A stretch of 64,000 nucleotides of DNA from Escherichia phage vB_EcoM_EP32a. The DNA lies in sequence record OR544954. One strand, 5' to 3'. Position 1 is the first letter of the stretch; every line of letters starts with the position of its first letter. A program made the position numbers and the translations under genes. The notes below the pieces were generated by a model. That model was not told the origin of the DNA, did no database searches, and worked only from the letters and a program-made list of their open reading frames with translations. Of this stretch, positions 7,580 through 44,392 are shown one piece after another.

Positions 7580-7646
7580 TTCTTTACGCTAAAGTAAAAT
7601 CTGTCGAGAACGGATATGAAAGCGACTAGTCGATGACTATGGTATT

Positions 7647-8446: not shown

Positions 8447-8520
8447 GGCCCTGTAGCTCAATGGTTAGCAGCAGTCCCCTCATAAGGGAAAGGTTACCAG
8501 TTCGAATCTGGTCTGGGTCA
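8447..8520 (+). tRNA. tRNA with CAU anticodon (Met, or Ile-AUA if lysidine-modified)
   Basis: Manual cloverleaf fold: acceptor GGCCCTG/CTGGGTC, T-arm ACCAG-TTCGAAT-CTGGT, anticodon loop CTCATAA; D-stem imperfect. Confidence 0.7.
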
Positions 8521-8526
8521 TATATT

Positions 8527-8603
<77 letters not shown>

Positions 8604-14967: not shown

Positions 14968-15441
14968 ATGCTGATGCCTGGTTGGTATCCTGCTATTCCA
15001 GGTTATCACCATGACGATGTACCACGCCCGGATATTCCAGTTGGTCAACACTTTATTACTGCAGGACAACCTGACTATGACAATCCTCGCTATTTGTCTG
15101 AACACATTCTTGGTCTTGTTAACGCTGATGTGTGTCCTACTCATTTTGCAACAGGAACTGCAGAGTTCAGTCAGATTCCTGATGGCGAACTTATCTATCG
15201 CCAGTGGCACAAAGAAGTCCTCGAAAAAATCGAAAAAGGTGAACTAGAGAAATGGGAAGCTCCGGACCGTACTCTTCTTCAGTTTGATTGGCAAACATGG
15301 CACACTGGTTCTCGTGCAATTAGTAATGGATGGCGTTGGTTCGGACGTGTATCTCGTAATACAGACCGAGTTAAAAAGATTACCAATGAAATTCGTGTCA
15401 ATGCTCAAGTTTATCTGGAATTCCCTATGGAAGGCTGGTAA
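14968..15441 (+). CDS. hypothetical protein (possibly the shifted continuation of the 14851-14964 mini-ORF)
   Basis: 157-codon ORF from an ATG without an SD; a strongly SD-led 37-codon ORF (14851-14964) ends in another frame just upstream. Confidence 0.35.
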   Translation: MLMPGWYPAIPGYHHDDVPRPDIPVGQHFITAGQPDYDNPRYLSEHILGLVNADVCPTHFATGTAEFSQIPDGELIYRQWHKEVLEKIEKGELEKWEAPDRTLLQFDWQTWHTGSRAISNGWRWFGRVSRNTDRVKKITNEIRVNAQVYLEFPMEGW

Positions 15442-15932
15442 TGATTAACAAAACATATTGGTCTAATATTGACGACGGCAATGAAGGTATTTCATACTAT
15501 TCAGTAGATTGGACAGGATGTCCATCCTACTTAGTGAAACGTATTTGCCAAGAATTTAAAATCGACCAGCCAGCAGGTATTATCGTGAACAGATACATTA
15601 ATGGATATCAACCTATCGATGAAGTAATACGAACAACTCAAGCTGAGCTTGAAAAGTTTTTCAATAAGTGCCAATGGATAACAGGATGGATTATATTTGT
15701 ACCGTCTATATGGTTTTTCAGTACTAAGGTGAGTTCTTTCGGTTTTGTTGATATTATTGCTATCTTATTAGCATCTACTATCGTAAGTATTATTGGCGGT
15801 ATAATTGGTGGAGGTACTGTAGGCATCATTATTAATCTTATTAAAAGTAGTTTACAAGAACATAAAGACAAGATAAAAGCCAAGAATAATGAAGTTGAAC
15901 GTTTTATTACCGAATGCAGGAATTTGAGATGA
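15441..15932 (+). CDS. membrane protein, C-terminal ERFITECRNLR motif
   Basis: ATGA overlap; TM region WITGWIIFVPSIWFF...IIGGIIGGGTVGIIINLI. Confidence 0.5.
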   Translation: MINKTYWSNIDDGNEGISYYSVDWTGCPSYLVKRICQEFKIDQPAGIIVNRYINGYQPIDEVIRTTQAELEKFFNKCQWITGWIIFVPSIWFFSTKVSSFGFVDIIAILLASTIVSIIGGIIGGGTVGIIINLIKSSLQEHKDKIKAKNNEVERFITECRNLR

Positions 15933-16165
15933 GTATAGCAATTTACATTAAATCAGAATCATGTGATAGTTATCTGTACACATACGATAAAGATGTGTCA
16001 GAAGAAAAAATCAAAGACGACCTTAATACGGATCTTGATATGTTCTGTCCTATTGCAGATTACAAACTTGCGGTCTCTAATAGTGAAAGTCCATCTAAAG
16101 AAACGCGCATTGAAGAATTTATGTCCGAATTAATGGCCAAATCATGGGACCGAGATGATGAGTAA
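15929..16165 (+). CDS. hypothetical protein
   Basis: ATGA-coupled 78-aa ORF. Confidence 0.45.
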   Translation: MSIAIYIKSESCDSYLYTYDKDVSEEKIKDDLNTDLDMFCPIADYKLAVSNSESPSKETRIEEFMSELMAKSWDRDDE

Positions 16166-16613
16166 GAAAAATAAAGTGAAAGAACTATCAGCCGGTATTA
16201 TTTTCCTTACCGAAGATAAAGAATTATTCATGGGGCGTGTAACTGGTTCTCGTCCTAAAGGTTCTTTAGCTCATCGCTGGGATATTCCTAAAGGACGTGT
16301 CGAGCCCGGTGAATCTCCTATTGAAGCCGCTATTCGCGAATGCGAAGAAGAAACTGGGTTTACACAATATGACCCTGCCTTCCTGAAAGACCTAGGTGAA
16401 CATCATTACTCAGACAATAAGAATATTCATCTGTTCCTATATACCATCCCTGTAGAGCACGAGCAATTCAGAAACAGTGCTTGTAATTCCTATCATACAT
16501 TCCCAGACGGACGACAGATTCCTGAATTTGATGCGTTCGCTTTAATTAAACCTTCTCAATGGGAATATGTAATGGGCAAATCATTATATAAGGTGCTCAC
16601 TACCCTCCTATAA
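16155..16613 (+). CDS. nudE: Nudix hydrolase (NudE / e.1-like)
   Basis: Nudix box GRVEPGESPIEAAIRECEEETGF; immediately upstream of lysozyme as in T4. Confidence 0.8.
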   Translation: MMSKKNKVKELSAGIIFLTEDKELFMGRVTGSRPKGSLAHRWDIPKGRVEPGESPIEAAIRECEEETGFTQYDPAFLKDLGEHHYSDNKNIHLFLYTIPVEHEQFRNSACNSYHTFPDGRQIPEFDAFALIKPSQWEYVMGKSLYKVLTTLL

Positions 16614-16647
16614 GTAATAAATACCTCCTATAAACGTGGGAGGTATT
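16603..16647 (+). promoter_or_regulatory. SD-sequestering hairpin with embedded late-promoter-like TATAAAcg upstream of gene e
   Basis: tACCTCCtataaacgtgGGAGGTa: the SD GGAGG pairs with upstream CCTCC; direct repeat cctcctataa at 16603 and 16624. Confidence 0.45.
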
Positions 16648-17136
16648 ATGAATATATTTGAAATGCTTCGTAATGACGAAGGTCTTAGACTGACTTTATA
16701 CAAAGACACTGAAGGCTTTTGGACGATTGGCATAGGCCATTTAGTAACAAAGAACCCATCTTTAGCCGTAGCTAAAGCTGAACTTGACAGAATGATCGGA
16801 CGTAAATGCAACGGTACAATTACCCTTGATGAGGCTGAAAAGCTATTTAATGAAGACGTTGATAAAGCTGTTCGCGGAATCTTGGGTAATGCTAAACTTA
16901 AACCGGTATATGATTCTTTAGATGCAGTTCGTCGATGTGCATTGGTCAATATGGTCTTCCAAATGGGTGTAACAGGCGTCGCCGGTTTTACTAATTCTCT
17001 TCGTATGCTTCAACAGAAACGTTGGGACGAGGCGGCAGTAAATCTAGCCCAATCTAAATGGTACCGTCAGACACCTAATCGCGCGAAACGCGTAATCTCA
17101 ACATTTAAAACAGGAACTTGGAAAGCGTATATATGA
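16648..17136 (+). CDS. e: endolysin (T4 lysozyme e homolog)
   Basis: [32 protein letters not shown]... strongly similar to T4 lysozyme. Confidence 0.95.
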
Positions 17137-17414
17137 AAACATATAGTGAATTTTTATCAGAATCTATTCTTAACGAAGCTACTGACACATTTGCAACTAA
17201 GCTAGGTGCAGCTTTGGTTGAAGCTGAAAGTCTATTAGCACGTATTTCTGAACTTGCTAGTAAGATAGATACTCGCAAATTTGAACGTACCAGCGATATC
17301 GCTAAGCTTGAAGCCTTGTTGCGTATGTGTGATAAACCGGAAGAAATCGCTAAGAACGGCTCGCTGATGAAACAACGTCTTGAAAAATATATTTCAGGCG
17401 CTTCAGAAAAATAG
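17133..17414 (+). CDS. internal protein (ipII-like) with capsid targeting sequence
   Basis: Starts [10 protein letters not shown] (CTS consensus); 93 aa; between e and denV. Confidence 0.65.
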
Positions 17415-17416
17415 TG

Positions 17417-17455
17417 TTTACTTCCTCCAAGGGTTTTGATACTATACATTCATCA
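17417..17455 (+). promoter_or_regulatory. early promoter cassette with palindrome
   Basis: GTTTACttcctccaagggttttgaTACTATacattcatcaactacttggagg; inverted repeat cctccaag/cttggagg. Confidence 0.45.
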
Positions 17456-17472
17456 ACTACTTGGAGGAAATT

Positions 17473-17886
17473 ATGACTCGTATCAATTTAACACTTGTTT
17501 CTGAACTGACCGACCAACATCTTATGGCTGAGTATCGTGAATTACCACGCGTATTTGGTGCAGTCCGTAAACATGTTCAAAACGGTAAACGTGTAAAGGA
17601 TTTTAAAATCTCTCCAACATTTATCTTAGGCACAGGTCACGTAACATTCTTTTACGACAAACTCGAATTTTTACGTTTACGTCAAATCGAGCTAATCGCT
17701 GAATGCTTGAAACGTGGTTTCAAAATCAAGGACACGACTGTTCAGGATATTTCCGACATCCCTGCCGAATTTCGTAATAATTACGTCCCGTCCGAAGCGT
17801 CCATTGCGATAAGTCAAGCACGCTTAGATGAAAAAATTGCTCAACGTCCGACTTGGTACAAATACTATGGTAAATCAATTTACTAA
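17473..17886 (+). CDS. denV: endonuclease V (pyrimidine-dimer DNA glycosylase) DenV
   Basis: [35 protein letters not shown]... matches T4 DenV. Confidence 0.95.
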
Positions 17887-17893
17887 GGAAAAA

Positions 17894-18154
17894 ATGAAAA
17901 TGTATCAAGAATTTATCATTGAAGCAGATGCCAAAGACCCTAAATTTAAAGTTAAAGCTTTCATTGGTGATGCGGAAGACTTTGGCTCATTAAAACGTAA
18001 TGGGTATTCTTTCTTAGGTGGTGATGGTAAAGAAATCAACACCTATGCAAAACGTAGTGAAATTGCTTATGTTGTAGTAAGTCCTAAAGTAGATGTTGAC
18101 GATATTGGATACGATTTTAACAACTTCGGAATTATTTCTGGCGGTAAAGCTTAA
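17894..18154 (+). CDS. internal protein-like with capsid targeting sequence
   Basis: Starts MKMYQEFIIEA (CTS-like); 86 aa. Confidence 0.55.
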   Translation: MKMYQEFIIEADAKDPKFKVKAFIGDAEDFGSLKRNGYSFLGGDGKEINTYAKRSEIAYVVVSPKVDVDDIGYDFNNFGIISGGKA

Positions 18155-18157
18155 ATT

Positions 18158-18195
18158 GTTTACGCTTAAGTATTAATATGGTATAATTACTCTAT
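18158..18195 (+). promoter_or_regulatory. early promoter (GTTTAC -35, extended TGGTATAAT -10)
   Basis: ttGTTTACgcttaagtattaataTGGTATAATtactctatcaaaa. Confidence 0.55.
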
Positions 18196-18217
18196 CAAAA
18201 CAAACAAGGAAACAAAA

Positions 18218-18295
18218 ATGAAAACATATAAAGAATTTATCGCCGATCCAACCTGTAATAAGGTCGAGCCCAAGTGCGGTAATGGGTTTACATAG
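18218..18295 (+). CDS. 25-aa peptide carrying only a capsid targeting sequence (MKTYKEFIADPTCNKVEPKCGNGFT)
   Basis: ATG after AAGGAAACAAAA, downstream of a strong early promoter; first 8 aa identical to the ipI-like CTS. Confidence 0.4.
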   Translation: MKTYKEFIADPTCNKVEPKCGNGFT

Positions 18296-18351
18296 CGAGT
18301 CGAAGGACCTAACATGTGCCACGGAATGGCCCAAACCTTAAGAGAAATAAT

Positions 18352-18891
18352 ATGAGAACATTTTTAACTGGACCTTATCTATCCCTGATGAATGCTTTTA
18401 CACACCATTCTGATGCTAGAGTAGAAGAAATTTGTAAGAACGGTTATGTCCCGCCATTTGAAGAAGTACTCAAGCAGTACTGTACACTTCGTTTAGACGG
18501 CGGCCGACAATCCGGTAAATAAATTGCTGTGACTAACTTTGCTGCTAATTGGCTGTATGATGGTGGAACAGTTATTGTTCTTTCTAATACTTCAGCTTAT
18601 GCTAAAATTTCTGCTGGCAACATTAAAAAAGAATTTTCTCGTTATTCTAGCGATGATATTCGATTCCGTTTATTTACTGATTCTGTTCGTAGTTTTATTG
18701 GCAATGAAGGTTCTAAATTCCGTGGATTAACGCTTTCTCGTATTCTGTATATAATTGACGAGCCTATTAAAGCTCCTGATATGGATAAGATTTACAATGT
18801 ACATATTAAAACAGTCCAACACTGTTGCAAAAGCAAATATTGCATCGGCGGTAATGCTCGTCCTCAATTTTTTGTGATTGGAATGCAATGA
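18352..18891 (+). CDS. putative P-loop NTPase interrupted by in-frame TAA (18520-18522) directly after the Walker A lysine
   Basis: ...LRLDGGRQSGK-TAA-IAVTNFAANWLYDGG...ILYIIDEP in one continuous frame; GxxxxGK is followed by a stop where S/T is expected; Walker-B-like IIDE downstream. Confidence 0.4.
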
Positions 18892-19196
18892 TGACCACTA
18901 TTGAAGTTTTTGAGTATTGTTATAACAGTCCAGTATGCAATAAAAGGGCCCTTGTAGAAAATTACGAGATTTACCATTTTAAACCTAAACGATATCGTTT
19001 GACTAAAGGTCCGTTCGCAGGGCAGCAGGTTCTTTGTACTGCTCCTAATGCACGACTGATGACTAGTATTCCACATTTCAAAATGGAATTTATTGATGGG
19101 CCATTTAAGGGATTAATCACTCAAAGTTTAATGGCGTTTAATTCCGACCCATTTTTGATTAAAGAAAAATCTTGGATAAATTTATTTTCTAATTGA
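18888..19196 (+). CDS. hypothetical protein
   Basis: 102-aa ORF, ATGA overlap with upstream ORF. Confidence 0.45.
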   Translation: MMTTIEVFEYCYNSPVCNKRALVENYEIYHFKPKRYRLTKGPFAGQQVLCTAPNARLMTSIPHFKMEFIDGPFKGLITQSLMAFNSDPFLIKEKSWINLFSN

Positions 19197-19202
19197 GGTT
19201 AT

Positions 19203-19565
19203 ATGAAAGCATATCAAATTCTTGAAGGTGCACATAAAGGCACTATTTATTTTGAAGACGGTACTCAAGCCAGGATTATTGTCTCTAAGACTTTTAAAGA
19301 AGACGCTATTGTAGACCCGGAAATTTTCTACGGTTTGAATGCCCGTGAAATTGAAATTGAACATCAACCTAAAGTTAAAATTGAAGGTGGACAACATCTG
19401 AACGTTAACGTTCTGCGTCGTGAAACTCTAGAAGATGCAGTTAAGCATCCAGAAAAATATCCGCAGCTGACCATCCGTGTATCTGGTTATGCAGTTCGCT
19501 TTAACTCTCTGACTCCGGAACAGCAGCGTGACGTTATCGCTCGCACCTTTACTGAGAGTCTATAA
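19203..19565 (+). CDS. autonomous glycyl radical cofactor (GrcA/YfiD-like)
   Basis: C-terminal ...[59 protein letters not shown] carries the RVSGY glycyl-radical motif and matches, as I recall it, E. coli GrcA. Confidence 0.8.
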
Positions 19566-19789
19566 TGGCTAAATTGATTATAGAAGGGTCTGAAGATGTT
19601 TTAAAATGTTTTGCCGCCTGGTTTAGTTGCTCAGGCGAGCAATCATTCACTGAAGCATTTAGAATGGGTGATATTACTGGAAACTATCCGACAACTGATA
19701 TCACTGTACGTGGATATGGTATTAATGAGCCTATCCAATTGGTCGAATATGACCTTGCCACCGATGAGGAAATTCCTTATGTCGATTGA
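19565..19789 (+). CDS. hypothetical protein
   Basis: 74-aa ORF, ATGG-coupled to the GrcA-like gene. Confidence 0.4.
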   Translation: MAKLIIEGSEDVLKCFAAWFSCSGEQSFTEAFRMGDITGNYPTTDITVRGYGINEPIQLVEYDLATDEEIPYVD

Positions 19790-19912
19790 AGACATCAAAG
19801 GCTACAAGCCGCATACCGATGATAAAATCAGTAAAGTGAACGCTATTAAAGATGCAGAAGTTCGTGTCGTGCAGTATTTCGACCTGAGGAAAAATACTAA
19901 TGGCTAGAGTAG

Positions 19913-19962
19913 TTTACTTCTCCTCTAGTTGTGTTACTATAGACCTGTCAACTAGAGGAGAA
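19913..19962 (+). promoter_or_regulatory. early promoter cassette with 12-bp inverted repeat
   Basis: GTTTACttctcctctagttgtgTTACTATagacctgtcaactagaggag; near-identical copy at 60757-60806. Confidence 0.5.
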
Positions 19963-19968
19963 ATCAAA

Positions 19969-20427
19969 ATGACTATCAATTCAGACGTTTTTATCCGTCG
20001 TAATAAACTCCGTCGAATCTTTGAAACGGAGTTCCGCAAAATAAATGCCGGTATAAAAGATGCTGCAAAGTCTCTTGGACTACCAGGCTTTCATATCAAG
20101 TATTCTCAACATCTCTTAGATCGTGCCATCCAGAGAGAAATAGATGAGAATTACGTTTTTGAATTATTTCATAAAGTAAAAAATCACGTTAAAGAAGTTG
20201 CAGAATTTTTATCAATGCCGGCACGTCCAGATGTTGATGAAGATTTTGTCGAAGGTGTCGAGTATCGTCCAGGCCGTTTAGAAATAACTGACGGAAATCT
20301 TTGGTTAGGACTTACAGTTTGTCGCGAAAATCCGACATTCAAAATGAAGACTCTTCAATGTAGAATGGCTATTATTAACAGTAAACGACTACCAGGAAAA
20401 GCTTCTAAAGCAGTGATTAAAATCTAG
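19969..20427 (+). CDS. regB: endoribonuclease RegB
   Basis: MTINSDVFIRRNKLRR...KYSQHLLDRAIQREIDE...GRLEITDGNLWLG...LQCRMAIINSKRLPGKASKAVIK; 152 aa (T4 RegB 153 aa). Confidence 0.8.
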   Translation: MTINSDVFIRRNKLRRIFETEFRKINAGIKDAAKSLGLPGFHIKYSQHLLDRAIQREIDENYVFELFHKVKNHVKEVAEFLSMPARPDVDEDFVEGVEYRPGRLEITDGNLWLGLTVCRENPTFKMKTLQCRMAIINSKRLPGKASKAVIKI

Positions 20428-20435
20428 AGGTAAAC

Positions 20436-20978
20436 ATGAGAAAAGCACTACTCGCTGGTCTATTTGCTCTTTCATTATCAGCACATAGCTCCGAGCATAC
20501 TTTTAGTAATGTCCAACTCGATAACTTGAATTATGCTTATCAGTTTGGGGAACAGTTTTCTAAGGACGGAAAATTTAAAACGCATGAAAATATGCATAAG
20601 AAAGGACTTGGATACATAATGGCCGCAATACTATGGCAAGAATCATCTGCCGGTATTAATCTTAAAGATAAGAAAGGTCACCATGCGTATGGAATGTTCC
20701 AAAATTATCTACCAACAATGAGGGCAAGAATTAACCAGCTTGGTTATAATATGACTGATGCCCAAATTAAGAAAATGCTATCTAAGCGGTCTAATTCAGC
20801 CAGATGGGCTTATATCGAATTTTCTTATTGGTTAAATATACATAACGGGGATATAAGAAAAGCTATATCCTCATATAATGCGGGATGGAAGACAAGTGCT
20901 GGAAGTAAATATGCTTCTGAAGTCCTAGAAAAGGCTAATTACCTTAAATCAAATAAACTACTGGAAATAAAAGAATGA
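20436..20978 (+). CDS. secreted lytic transglycosylase-like protein (vs.1-like)
   Basis: Signal peptide MRKALLAGLFALSLSAHS; SLT-domain motifs ILWQESSAG, AYGMFQ, YNAG. Confidence 0.7.
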   Translation: MRKALLAGLFALSLSAHSSEHTFSNVQLDNLNYAYQFGEQFSKDGKFKTHENMHKKGLGYIMAAILWQESSAGINLKDKKGHHAYGMFQNYLPTMRARINQLGYNMTDAQIKKMLSKRSNSARWAYIEFSYWLNIHNGDIRKAISSYNAGWKTSAGSKYASEVLEKANYLKSNKLLEIKE

Positions 20979-21322
20979 CCAAAATGTTGGCTTTAATAGT
21001 TAGCTTGGTTTCATTTAACGCTCTTGCTAATACTACATATACTGATGTAACGGAGTATACAAACAGAACGGCGTCTGATTATTGTGGTAAAAGTCAAGAG
21101 TGTAAAGTAGATTTTTCACAAAAATTGTTATACGCGTATAAAGACGGAGAAAAAGATGGGGCGTCTAGTAGGTTCAAGGCGTCTACCTTAATTAAAAGAT
21201 ACTATAAAAAATGGCAAATATTAGAATGCTCGGTGGCGGAACCTAAAGATAAGGCAGCATGCAATTCTATGGTGGACCGTCTAGTTGACTCTTATAATAG
21301 AGGACTTGCAGCAAGTGATTAA
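20975..21322 (+). CDS. small secreted protein
   Basis: Signal peptide MTKMLALIVSLVSFNALA; four Cys in mature part. Confidence 0.5.
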   Translation: MTKMLALIVSLVSFNALANTTYTDVTEYTNRTASDYCGKSQECKVDFSQKLLYAYKDGEKDGASSRFKASTLIKRYYKKWQILECSVAEPKDKAACNSMVDRLVDSYNRGLAASD

Positions 21323-21782
21323 AAACTACATCAAGGGCGATATTGTCGCCCTGTTTTCTAAAGGTAATAATATTGCTCATGGGTGTAATTGTTTTCATAC
21401 AATGGGCGCCGGTGTAGCAGGCCAATTAGCAAAGGCTTATCCAAAAATTTTAGAAGCCGATAAACTTCAAACCGAATTCGGAGACGAGTCTAAACTCGGG
21501 TCTTATTCGGTTTATGAAAAATATTTTAAGACCCATAAAGCTTATTGCTTTAATCTTTATACGCAGTTTGAGCCTGGACCTAATTTTGAGTACTCTGCTT
21601 TAATGAATTGTATAATAGAATTAAATGAATTCGGAAAGAATAAGATAACAAAGCCTGTAATTTATATGCCAAGAATTGGTGCAGGTATCGGTGGTGGAAA
21701 CTGGGATGTCATCGAAGAGATTTTAGATACGTATTCCACTAAACTAGAAATTGTGATTGTTGATTGGGAACCATTATTATGA
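21315..21782 (+). CDS. macro domain protein (ADP-ribose binding / processing)
   Basis: GDIVALFSKGNNIAHGCNC...GAGVAGQL and PRIGAGIGGGNWDVI fit macrodomain signatures; start inferred at GTG 21315 after GAGGA (the ORF has no ATG before the domain). Confidence 0.6.
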   Translation: MIKNYIKGDIVALFSKGNNIAHGCNCFHTMGAGVAGQLAKAYPKILEADKLQTEFGDESKLGSYSVYEKYFKTHKAYCFNLYTQFEPGPNFEYSALMNCIIELNEFGKNKITKPVIYMPRIGAGIGGGNWDVIEEILDTYSTKLEIVIVDWEPLL

Positions 21783-21991
21783 ATATACATTATCCACATC
21801 CATATGACCCAAAGAATAAGGCAGTAATTATTCGTCAATGGGAACGCATTTGCCGTACCAAATGTCCAATTAATAGTCTACATGATGTAGATAAAGACTA
21901 CATTGGAACATTCGTTGAATATACCTTTATTGATAAGAAAGGTCGTAAACAGCATGTAGAAGAATACTGCTTAAAGGTGACATGGTTATGA
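21779..21991 (+). CDS. hypothetical protein
   Basis: 70-aa ORF. Confidence 0.4.
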   Translation: MNIHYPHPYDPKNKAVIIRQWERICRTKCPINSLHDVDKDYIGTFVEYTFIDKKGRKQHVEEYCLKVTWL

Positions 21992-22194
21992 GTCAAACAA
22001 AAATTCTTACAGGTGCTAAATGCGAAAAATGCGAATGGCCTGTAGTTTTTGCTTTATGCAATGACGAAATGGCTTGTGATTTTGATTATTGGTGTTACTG
22101 TTCGAACAAAGGTTGTAGCAATCATAAAGGTGAAGGGTTTTACTCAGGATTTTACCCTTACCCGGATTTCGTTAAAGAAGGTGAACCTAAATGA
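21988..22194 (+). CDS. Cys-rich small protein (putative zinc-binding)
   Basis: CEKCEW...CNDEMACD...WCYCSNKGC. Confidence 0.45.
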   Translation: MSQTKILTGAKCEKCEWPVVFALCNDEMACDFDYWCYCSNKGCSNHKGEGFYSGFYPYPDFVKEGEPK

Positions 22195-26391: not shown

Positions 26392-26673
26392 ATGAAAAAA
26401 TTAGCAATTGGTTTATTCGCAGTAATGATGGCATTCTCTGTTGGTGCTACCACGGGTGCAGCCAGCGGTAGTGCAGGAGCTGGTGGTAACCAGTCTTCTG
26501 GGCCTTCCAACGGTTCGGTAAATGCATCACATTCTCAGGGTATTGAGAATATCAAATCGAGCTATATTAATAGCACGGCCGGACAAGCAACTGAAGCATG
26601 GTCAAAGGGTCGAGTAGTTACTCGCTCCGTATTCTGTGATATGCCTAATTATGTTGCTAAGTGCGATAAGTAA
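26392..26673 (+). CDS. small secreted Gly/Ser-rich protein
   Basis: Signal peptide MKKLAIGLFAVMMAFSVGA; low-complexity G/S/A/N region. Confidence 0.5.
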   Translation: MKKLAIGLFAVMMAFSVGATTGAASGSAGAGGNQSSGPSNGSVNASHSQGIENIKSSYINSTAGQATEAWSKGRVVTRSVFCDMPNYVAKCDK

Positions 26674-42649: not shown

Positions 42650-42875
42650 TTATGAAATCCATCGTCATGAATTTAGTATTGGTGACGGTTATATTGGTAT
42701 CGTTGAATGGACCGAGAATTACGAGGAATCAACTCCTCGTTTCTTTGGAACAATGTATGTTACCTGTGAGTACGCACCAGGTGTTGTTATGTATGCAGAA
42801 CTAGATGAATATTTTGCTGATAGAGATGACATGTTAAAATATGTAGAGGACTTCATTCGAAGAGAATACATATGA
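42636..42875 (+). CDS. hypothetical protein (46.x position)
   Basis: 79-aa ORF. Confidence 0.45.
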   Translation: MTKTDYEIHRHEFSIGDGYIGIVEWTENYEESTPRFFGTMYVTCEYAPGVVMYAELDEYFADRDDMLKYVEDFIRREYI

Positions 42876-44392
42876 AATCATTTAAATTAAATCGTGTTCG
42901 TTATCAAAACATCATGTCGGTAGGTGGGAATCCTATTGATATCCAATTAGATAAAGTCCAAAAGACATTAATCACTGGTAAAAATGGCGGTGGTAAATCT
43001 ACGATGTTAGAAGCCATTACTTTCGGACTTTTCGGTAAACCATTTCGTGATGTTAAGAAAGGACAAATCATTAACAGCACGAATAAGAAAGAGCTCTTAG
43101 TTGAGCTTTGGATGGAATTCGATGGTAAAAAATACTTCATTAAACGTGGCCAAAAGCCCAATATTTTCGAAATCTCCGTTGACGGTGTTCGTCTTGATGA
43201 ATCTGCCAGCAGTCGCGACTTCCAAGAAGAATTTGAACGTAGCATCGGAATGTCATACGCGTCTTTTAAACAAATCGTTGTGCTTGGGACGGCAGGGTAT
43301 ACCCCTTTCATGGCTCTTAGCACCCCTGCTCGTAGAAAACTTGTCGAAGACCTTTTAGAAGTCGGCACACTCGCTGAAATGGATAAAATCAATAAGTCTC
43401 AAGTTCGAGAACTTAATTCCCAGGGACAAGTTCTCGATGCCAAGAAAGATGGTATTATCCAACAAATTAAGATTTATAACGAGAATATCGAACGTCAAAA
43501 GAAATTATCTGGTGATAATGTAGCGCGTCTACAGAATATGTATGACGACCTAGCCAAAGAAGCTCGTTCATTAAAAGCAGAAATCGAAGAAGCTAATGAG
43601 CGACTACTTAATATCGTTCTTGACGAAGACCCTACTGAGGCATTCAACAAGATAGGACAAGAAGCATTCTTGATTAAATCTAAAATTGACTCATATAACA
43701 AAGTTATTAAGATGTATCATGATGGCGGTACATGTCCTACTTGTGCATCACAGTTGCACCAGGGTGATCCTATTGTCTCTAAGATTACCGATAAGCTTCA
43801 CGAATGTAATCACTCATTCGAGCAACTTACATGTCACAGAGATAATCTGAGTGTCCTAGTGGACGAATATAGAGCTAATGTTAAGACTAAACAGGACCTT
43901 GCATCTGATATTCGCACCAAGAAACAAGCAATGATTGCCACTATTGATAAAGCTAAGAAAGTTAAAGCTGCAATAGAGCAAGCCTCAGCAGAATTTATCG
44001 ACCATGCCGATGAGATAGCTTTGCTTCAAAAAGAACTTGATAAAATCATTAAAACAAAATCAGATATCGTTCTTGAAAAATACCATCGTGGTATTATCAC
44101 AGATATGTTAAAAGATTCTGGTATTAAAGGTGCTATCATTAAAAAATATGTGCCTCTGTTCAACAAGCAGATTAACCATTATCTTAAAATCATGGAAGCT
44201 GATTACGTGTTTTCTATTGATGAAGAATTCAATGAATCTATAAAATCACGTGGTCGTGAAGATTTTAGTTATGCTTCATTTAGTCAAGGTGAAAAAGCGC
44301 GTATCGATATCGCATTGTTGTTTACATGGCGAGATATTGCTGAAAAGGTCTCTGGCGTTAGAATCAACAAACGTGTTCATTATTTGTCATAG
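42872..44392 (+). CDS. 46: recombination endonuclease subunit gp46 (Rad50/SbcC-like), frame broken near 44366-44372; the H-loop segment continues in another frame to 44471
   Basis: Walker A GKNGGGKST, coiled coil, signature FSQGEKARIDIAL; after ...VSGVRIN the frame stops (KRVHYLS*), while the shifted frame reads TNVFIICHRDHDPQAYGQHLQMSKVGRFTVMTVS; no Walker B/D-loop between signature and H-loop. Confidence 0.85.
   Translation: MKSFKLNRVRYQNIMSVGGNPIDIQLDKVQKTLITGKNGGGKSTMLEAITFGLFGKPFRDVKKGQIINSTNKKELLVELWMEFDGKKYFIKRGQKPNIFEISVDGVRLDESASSRDFQEEFERSIGMSYASFKQIVVLGTAGYTPFMALSTPARRKLVEDLLEVGTLAEMDKINKSQVRELNSQGQVLDAKKDGIIQQIKIYNENIERQKKLSGDNVARLQNMYDDLAKEARSLKAEIEEANERLLNIVLDEDPTEAFNKIGQEAFLIKSKIDSYNKVIKMYHDGGTCPTCASQLHQGDPIVSKITDKLHECNHSFEQLTCHRDNLSVLVDEYRANVKTKQDLASDIRTKKQAMIATIDKAKKVKAAIEQASAEFIDHADEIALLQKELDKIIKTKSDIVLEKYHRGIITDMLKDSGIKGAIIKKYVPLFNKQINHYLKIMEADYVFSIDEEFNESIKSRGREDFSYASFSQGEKARIDIALLFTWRDIAEKVSGVRINKRVHYLS

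Follow-up and report, generated by a model that had tools for sequence, protein, structure and literature searches.

Why does the reading frame of a putative phage ATPase run into a stop codon directly after the lysine of its Walker A motif? The frame lies at positions 18352-18891 of a 64,000-nucleotide stretch of DNA from Escherichia phage vB_EcoM_EP32a (OR544954), the whole of which is termed the window. From sequence and translation there is a single 180-codon frame interrupted by TAA, reading MRTF...LDGGRQSGK-stop-IAVTNFAANW...ILYIIDEP...VIGMQ-stop, in which GGRQSGK fits the pattern GxxxxGK and the stop immediately follows the codon for its lysine (AAA, 18517-18519). A fit to Walker B (ILYIIDE, 18742-18762) lies 3' of the premature stop, and two in-frame codons, ATT GCT (18523-18528), separate the TAA from a GTG at 18529 with which an ORF of 120 amino acids begins.

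The initial annotation of this DNA had taken the two ORFs (the first given as 18352-18522, a range that takes in the stop codon) to be one interrupted frame, with the TAA in phase right after the Walker A lysine. The position of the stop is confirmed by the sequence and its translation, and the continuity of the frame by intact 540-nt orthologs of equal length. That the frame has the length of these orthologs and 96-98.5% DNA identity to them argues that it has not arisen by chance. The annotation had further proposed that a single C to A change from TCA had replaced the Ser/Thr residue, and alignment with ortholog DNA leads to the same result. Base 18521 is A in EP32a and C in its relatives, where the codon encodes Ser57; it is TCA or TCG in 9/9 of the other ungapped 540-nt copies of the gene compared. 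The features of the locus, and further lesions in the window, are collected in Table 1.

Table 1. Features of the vs.8 locus and other lesions in the EP32a window, in order of position.
Feature	Position	Strand	Basis or remark
19-nt deletion, APCEc01_154 ortholog	7625		frameshift after codon 17
Private TGG to TAG (Trp20), APCEc01_155 ortholog, 171 aa	7909-7911		second nonsense codon
620-bp deletion, gene 157 missing	9309
223-bp deletion, second half of gene 158	9582
84-86-nt deletion, APCEc01_172 ortholog (228 aa)	14944		frameshift
Sigma-70/T4-early-type promoter-like site, TTTACG-17 nt-TATAAT with TG	18159..18187	+	10/12 consensus
25-codon remnant ORF, MKTYKEFIA..., start of Ip-like gene joined to non-coding sequence	18219..18296	+
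709-bp deletion, two internal-head-protein-like genes lost	18246/18247		RB69 ORF124c/ORF123c = APCEc01_180/181
vs.8 N-terminal 56 codons, to Walker A Lys	18352..18519	+	WPK28792.1; residues 1-56 match orthologs
Premature ochre stop TAA in place of Ser57	18520..18522	+	ortholog alignment
Remaining vs.8 frame, residues 58-179 and natural TGA	18523..18891	+	120-aa ORF WPK28793.1 from GTG 18529
vs.7 ortholog; ATG overlaps vs.8 stop (ATGA, 18888-18891)	18888..19196	+
vs.4 ortholog internally deleted and frameshifted; next ORF APCEc01_187 lost	19779-19905		deletions 19865-19905
In-frame 105-nt deletion, gene 210 ortholog	30555
291-bp deletion, gene 215 missing	32715		flanked by imperfect direct repeat of ~22 nt
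219-bp deletion, gene 231 missing	38865
Out-of-frame 89-nt deletion, gene 46-like SbcC/Rad50 ATPase	44369/44370		Walker B LILDEVFDG removed; ORF 42872-44392

By its sequence and position the interrupted gene is orthologous to vs.8 of T4 and RB69, which encodes a stand-alone protein of ~179 amino acids. By BLAST the window belongs to Mosigvirus, the genus of RB69-like phages, and the order of the locus is of T4 type: nudE, e, an internal-protein gene, denV, an internal-protein gene, vs.8 and vs.7, with GrcA-like vs.6, vs.5, vs.4, regB, vs.1 and vs lying 3' of vs.7. The gene thus has the genomic position of the family, 3' of denV and the internal-protein (Ip) genes and 5' of vs.7 and vs.6, and over residues 1-179 its conceptual translation shares 98.3% identity with APCEc01_182. 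An uninterrupted ORF of ~172-196 codons is lacking in EP32a, where TAA stands at codon 57, and this copy of vs.8 is a disrupted member of the family, a pseudogene allele. The start codon of vs.7 lies within the vs.8 stop codon, so translation of vs.7 may be coupled to that of vs.8, and a polar effect of the premature stop on vs.7 is possible. The promoter-like site that precedes the remnant Ip ORF and vs.8 is known from its match to the consensus alone, and such sites are no commoner in this region than in shuffled sequence.

The intact vs.8 ortholog matches PHROG 1488 with E = 2.3e-78, and phage 348Ecol098PP has the gene as one continuous CDS of 540 nt, with P-loop NTPase as its annotation. 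Using tblastn we find vs.8 in 1,009 phage records across the Tevenvirinae, down to ~36% identity. A word-indexed protein search combined with an exhaustive profile search of 1.84 billion proteins gave 57 representatives of the family, nearly all of them stand-alone proteins of 160-196 amino acids. The protein cluster formed around vs.8 at 90% identity also contains vs.7 proteins of 101-102 amino acids (P0036, P0039, P0042 and P0046). Apparent C-terminal vs.8 fragments of 102 amino acids in this cluster were rejected as such; they are vs.7 proteins, and their presence is an artefact of clustering.

Among the attempts to assign vs.8 to a wider family, comparison of folds alone was informative. 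Matches of the intact protein to TerL profiles are weak (phrog_2, 9e-6; Pfam Terminase_6N, 0.021, below threshold at 14.9 bits against a cut-off of 22), as are those to AAA domains. The NCBIfam search gave no match, and those of PADLOC and of PDB sequences gave no significant one. The AlphaFold model of vs.8, calculated from an input alignment of 20 sequences, is confident (pLDDT 82.7, pTM 0.84). It has a RecA-like alpha/beta fold, with the P-loop between the strand 45-48 and the helix 54-69, and with the Walker B sequence ILYIIDEP, an hhhhD[E] motif conserved in the family, on strand E131-137 of the core sheet. We conclude that vs.8 is a predicted single-domain ASCE P-loop NTPase of the helicase/terminase type. 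The initial annotation had spoken of a nonsense change in a P-loop protein, and ortholog alignment and fold prediction agree on this. Identification of vs.8 as a TerL was rejected, since it has no C-terminal nuclease domain and scores for Terminase_6N and Terminase_3 do not exceed threshold. A literature search returned no experimental data on the function or essentiality of vs.8.

The residue that is lost is a conserved one. The motif TLRLDGGRQ[ST]GK[ST] is almost invariant in the family, and position 57 is Ser or Thr in 20/20 full-length representatives and in 27/28 diverse members, down to ~20% identity; the exception to GK[S/T] is one distant member with GHS. In P-loop NTPases the Ser/Thr that follows the Walker A lysine coordinates the Mg2+ ion of Mg-NTP. 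The product of the EP32a gene lacks the complete GxxxxGK[S/T] motif, the S/T codon being TAA.

The stop allele is private to EP32a. A 91-nt query around the stop matched 391 phage records, none of them identical, and the best had two mismatches including that at the stop; the collection compared contains OR544955 and OR544956 from the same series, without EP32a's own OR544954. An exact 23-mer containing TAA had no occurrence in IMG/VR, metagenome contigs or GTDB genomes; the TCA version does occur, and a BLAST search of E. coli assemblies gave no match to the TAA allele. When EP32a vs.8 is compared with nine other ungapped 540-nt copies, position 18521 is the only substitution private to it, and the 122 codons 3' of the stop exhibit no decay. 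With this as its sole private substitution, the event is very recent, or else an error.

We find no sign that the interruption is an organized one. All of the 20 full-length and 28 diverse vs.8 members are uninterrupted, so there is no conserved split among them, and none of the 57 family representatives starts just after the P-loop (0/57). The GTG at 18529 is the codon for Val60 of the conserved AVTNF motif, and there is no GGAG-like ribosome-binding site in the sequence 5' of it. The only tRNAs in the 64-kb window are tRNA-Met(cat) and tRNA-Arg(tct), at 8447-8603, and two tRNAs are reported for the whole genome (PMC11657129). Rescue by a suppressor tRNA was therefore rejected. The relative p000y has ten tRNAs at this locus, including a tRNA-Ser(tga) that EP32a lacks. 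A search of positions 15000-22000 against Rfam found nothing, and the longer intergenic block of RB69 gave matches at chance level only; the predicted RNA fold of 18240-18360 is no better than that of shuffled sequence (z = 0.24). On these null results an RNA element or recoding signal near the stop was rejected. A +4 hop over the stop between successive AAA triplets was rejected because it would land out of frame.

A stop at the same boundary is found in a second phage. In vB_Eco_F25 (OP870144.1), a Tequatrovirus, vs.8 has an in-frame TAA between the same Walker A lysine and serine, the DNA reading GGT AAA TAA TCA ACT, with TAA at 869-871 of the locus excerpt. This lesion is a 3-nt tandem duplication of AAT, from GGTAAATCA to GGTAAATAATCA, that keeps the Ser codon. 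As in EP32a the gene is left as ORFs of 56 and 120 amino acids (WBF80000.1 and WBF79888.1) with the same GTG start, but the mutation differs, a duplication instead of a substitution, and so does the genus. In HEMP5, the nearest relative of F25, vs.8 is intact, and the F25 insertion is in no other phage record or IMG/VR contig. The stops in F25 and EP32a are independent, private events, and sharing of the Lys56/Ser57 boundary is probably a coincidence at a mutation-prone site. Of the codons of the gene, 53 can become a stop by a single substitution, codon 57 among them (2 of 70 such paths); it is also among only 10-11 positions at which duplication of a triplet generates an in-frame stop. With ~9 known vs.8 lesions over 179 codons, a codon would be shared by chance about once in five. 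Given both the predisposition of the codon and the number of lesions, the sharing is not very unlikely. The independent lesions of vs.8 in other isolates include those of F25, EP32B and SV76, and frameshifted fragments.

The vs.8 stop is not the only lesion in this record. We surveyed the window by tblastn with 132 CDSs of APCEc01, the nearest genome at ~98% identity. All ten large differences are deletions in EP32a, and the sole insertion, at 26462, adds 15 nt and preserves the frame. None of the 15 nearest genomes has any of the four deletions that fall between 14000 and 24000. The deletion at 7625 is in none of the best 12 of 652 matches to a 391-nt query, all of which span 410 nt, and the Trp20 codon that is TAG in the gene 155 ortholog remains TGG in APCEc01, EP32B and G53. 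The junction of the 709-bp deletion carries the microhomology CCAACC, at a locus where the number of Ip-like genes varies among relatives. Its right-hand boundary, in EP32B as in EP32a, is a conserved non-coding block 5' of vs.8 (18247-18340), somewhat richer in G+C, that is ~170 nt long in RB69 (excerpt L001, 3240-3411) and of which EP32a retains the 3' 95 nt; the block has no Rfam match and a predicted fold no better than that of shuffled sequence. In its intact form vs.4 belongs to the Acb2/Tad1 family (Pfam PF24729, E = 4e-18), whose members are nucleotide sponges directed against CBASS and Thoeris. The deletion in gene 46 leaves a product of 506 amino acids (WPK28852.1), compared with 562 in relatives; in T4 this gene is essential. 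An exact-sequence look-up showed this product and the two vs.8 ORFs, of 56 and 120 amino acids, to be identical to deposited EP32a proteins (WPK28852.1, WPK28792.1 and WPK28793.1), and so identifies the window as EP32a DNA.

The sibling phage vB_EcoP_EP32B (OR544955.1) is the only record that matches the gene 46 junction of EP32a in a single piece. The deletion is common to the two within 1 nt, yet the flanking sequences differ at 17/800 positions. They are thus not the same molecule, and cross-contamination of the two assemblies by one contig was rejected. A deletion placed within 1 nt in two genomes that have diverged by ~2% is more likely to come from a problem of assembly than from inheritance, and the essential role of gene 46 in T4 also indicates that the lesion is probably an assembly artefact. 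EP32B has a deletion in gene 172 at the same site as that of EP32a, larger by 6 nt, and a larger deletion at the Ip locus with the identical right-hand boundary at 18247. Its vs.8 has a normal Ser57 codon, with a 4-nt deletion of its own (~18535, equivalent to 18817 in EP32a) that frameshifts the last ~25 codons. Between EP32B and EP32a there are many small indels of 1-35 nt and large gaps, including one of 4.3 kb over the tRNA region, and these are consistent with poor assembly. EP32a is described as having 163,906 bp and 98.08% identity to APCEc01; the two phages share an isolation host, their genomes were put together by SPAdes from Illumina data (2x150 reads, with a stated 100 Mb per sample), and for a third genome of the study it is noted that no TerL was found (PMC11657129). 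All three genomes of this study look short, with lengths of 163.9 and 156.7 kb where other Mosigvirus records have 167-171 kb. Its ten private deletions, a further nonsense codon and the gene 46 lesion show the EP32a record to be unreliable and of draft quality. Neither it nor that of EP32B should be used uncritically in comparisons of gene content or therapeutic safety.

How, then, is the stop in vs.8 to be explained? The idea of a deliberately split gene, offered in the initial annotation as one of two alternatives, is not upheld, since homologs are uninterrupted and the TAA allele is private. The annotation had named two-ORF orthologs with conserved independent starts as evidence against its own reading. 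F25 does have two ORFs, split at the same point, but its split is likewise private and arose by a different mutation; only these two phages are split. The GTG is common to both, but it is the Val60 codon and not part of any conserved split architecture. Translational bypassing and reinitiation are known features of T4-type phages, and together with the intact 122 codons 3' of the stop and a GTG 6 nt after it this might suggest readthrough, bypass or suppression, or separate halves that assemble into an ATPase. We consider this most improbable. The stop is conserved in no relative, and neither a phage-encoded cognate suppressor tRNA nor an Rfam element or significant RNA structure was found nearby. 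Both release factors recognize UAA, and the usual ochre suppressors of E. coli insert Gln, Lys or Tyr and so would not supply the required Ser or Thr. A fragment starting at Val60 would lack the P-loop and Ser57-Ala59, and in the vs.8 model the protein is broken just where the P-loop passes into its helix. Selection is also an improbable explanation, although less so. Loss of the ATPase, or production of two fragments, might be advantageous on some hosts, for example in escape from a defence system that responds to this terminase-like ATPase, or a hotspot might drive lesions to recur between Lys56 and Ser57. The independent TAA at this boundary in F25, in another genus and with HEMP5 intact, is in keeping with this, as are two fragments: P0013, from which an in-frame deletion has removed the P-loop, and P0032, which diverges after residue 61. 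Other accessory genes related to defence have also been lost from EP32a, namely the two internal-protein-like genes and the Acb2/Tad1-family vs.4. Against this, codon 57 is predisposed to such mutations and its sharing is no great surprise by chance, as calculated above; selection for loss of function would not favor one codon. Moreover P0013 and P0032 come from contigs of at most ~1 kb, of doubtful quality, and no link to a defence system emerged, the PADLOC matches being non-significant. That the stops in two genera and the P-loop-proximal lesions reflect selection to switch off a terminase-like mini-ATPase, or to express its halves separately, seems to us slightly more improbable still. If it were so, a possible driver would be escape from a host immune sensor of terminase-type ATPase folds, and vs.8 would be a decoy or trigger in the conflict of phage and host, not a neutral passenger. 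The F25 coincidence is a minor lead.

A greater challenge comes from the quality of the record itself. The phage may really have TCA, with the A at 18521 a consensus error from a part of the draft SPAdes assembly where coverage was low or strains were mixed; we regard this as doubtful, if a good deal more plausible than either selection or recoding. The record is questionable and the stop lies 275 nt from a deletion junction, so such an error could have occurred. The ten large differences are all deletions, including the out-of-frame lesion in a gene essential in T4. EP32B, from the same study and host, is deleted at nearly the same sites despite flanks that are ~2% divergent, and the genomes of the study look short, with no TerL reported for one of them (PMC11657129). 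There is also a statistical indication. The private substitutions within 1-46855 of the window comprise 222 synonymous, 61 non-synonymous and 1 nonsense change, and those that alter the protein are enriched near the junctions of deletions (13/25 within 300 nt, the other 12 being synonymous, against 49/259 elsewhere; Fisher p = 5e-4). Close to the gene 46 junction, at distances of 8 and 17 nt, there are two private non-synonymous changes. C to A, moreover, is a class of substitution known from oxidative damage in libraries. Yet the enrichment is confounded by gene category, since the genes near junctions are accessory or already broken, and the density of private substitutions is not raised there (5.1/kb against 6.7/kb). 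If the DNA was mostly that of the phage, the stated volume of reads implies very deep coverage, at which consensus substitution errors are rare. Finally, the natural truncation of vs.8 at the same spot in the unrelated F25 record makes a real event in EP32a plausible.

We conclude that the stop in vs.8 is an ordinary null allele or a base-call error and not a designed split gene. This is what is left when neither a suppressor tRNA nor a conserved split is found, and the second half has no ribosome-binding site of its own. We think it rather probable that EP32a carries a very recent loss-of-function ochre allele of vs.8, a presumably dispensable accessory gene. By such a null allele, one C to A transversion would have converted the Walker A Ser codon from TCA to TAA, and ribosomes would release a peptide of 56 residues ending at the P-loop lysine. 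Missing from this peptide would be the Ser/Thr that coordinates Mg2+, the helix of the P-loop, Walker B and all else of the RecA-like core. No ATPase could then be made, and any restart at GTG 18529 would generate a 120-residue fragment without the P-loop. On the strength of the sequence, EP32a would thus have lost the ATPase activity of vs.8. The phage would survive this loss if vs.8 is not essential, and the sporadic broken copies in other isolates suggest that it is presumably dispensable. The presence of inactivated vs.8 in several isolates points to conditional dispensability, as for many anti-defence and host-takeover genes. Whether a private nonsense allele or a base-call error, such a lesion in an accessory gene that would be non-essential is an everyday finding and of little importance in itself; a by-product of its study is that vs.8, present in about 1,000 T4-like genomes, can now be described as a predicted stand-alone P-loop domain of the helicase/terminase type.

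The gene in EP32a has the same locus position and the same 540-nt length as vs.8 of RB69 (NP_861812.1), APCEc01 (APCEc01_182) and T4. It differs in having TAA for Ser57, where the copies examined are uninterrupted, F25 excepted. In its predicted fold vs.8 is similar to the ATPase domains of helicases and of phage terminases such as the N-domain of T4 gp17, Sf6 gp2 and P74-26 TerL. It may be likened to the RecA1 domain of SF2 helicases, but vs.8 has no second RecA domain. Unlike TerL, it is one domain of ~179 amino acids with no nuclease domain and falls below the Pfam thresholds, and the vs.8 sequences form a small family of their own, with 57 representatives, apart from terminases and helicases. 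As to the lesion, the classical amber and ochre alleles of the T-even phages are likewise premature stops generated by a single base change, with a phenotype that depends on the suppressor carried by the host. The EP32a allele differs from these in that it lies in a natural isolate and in a gene that would be non-essential.
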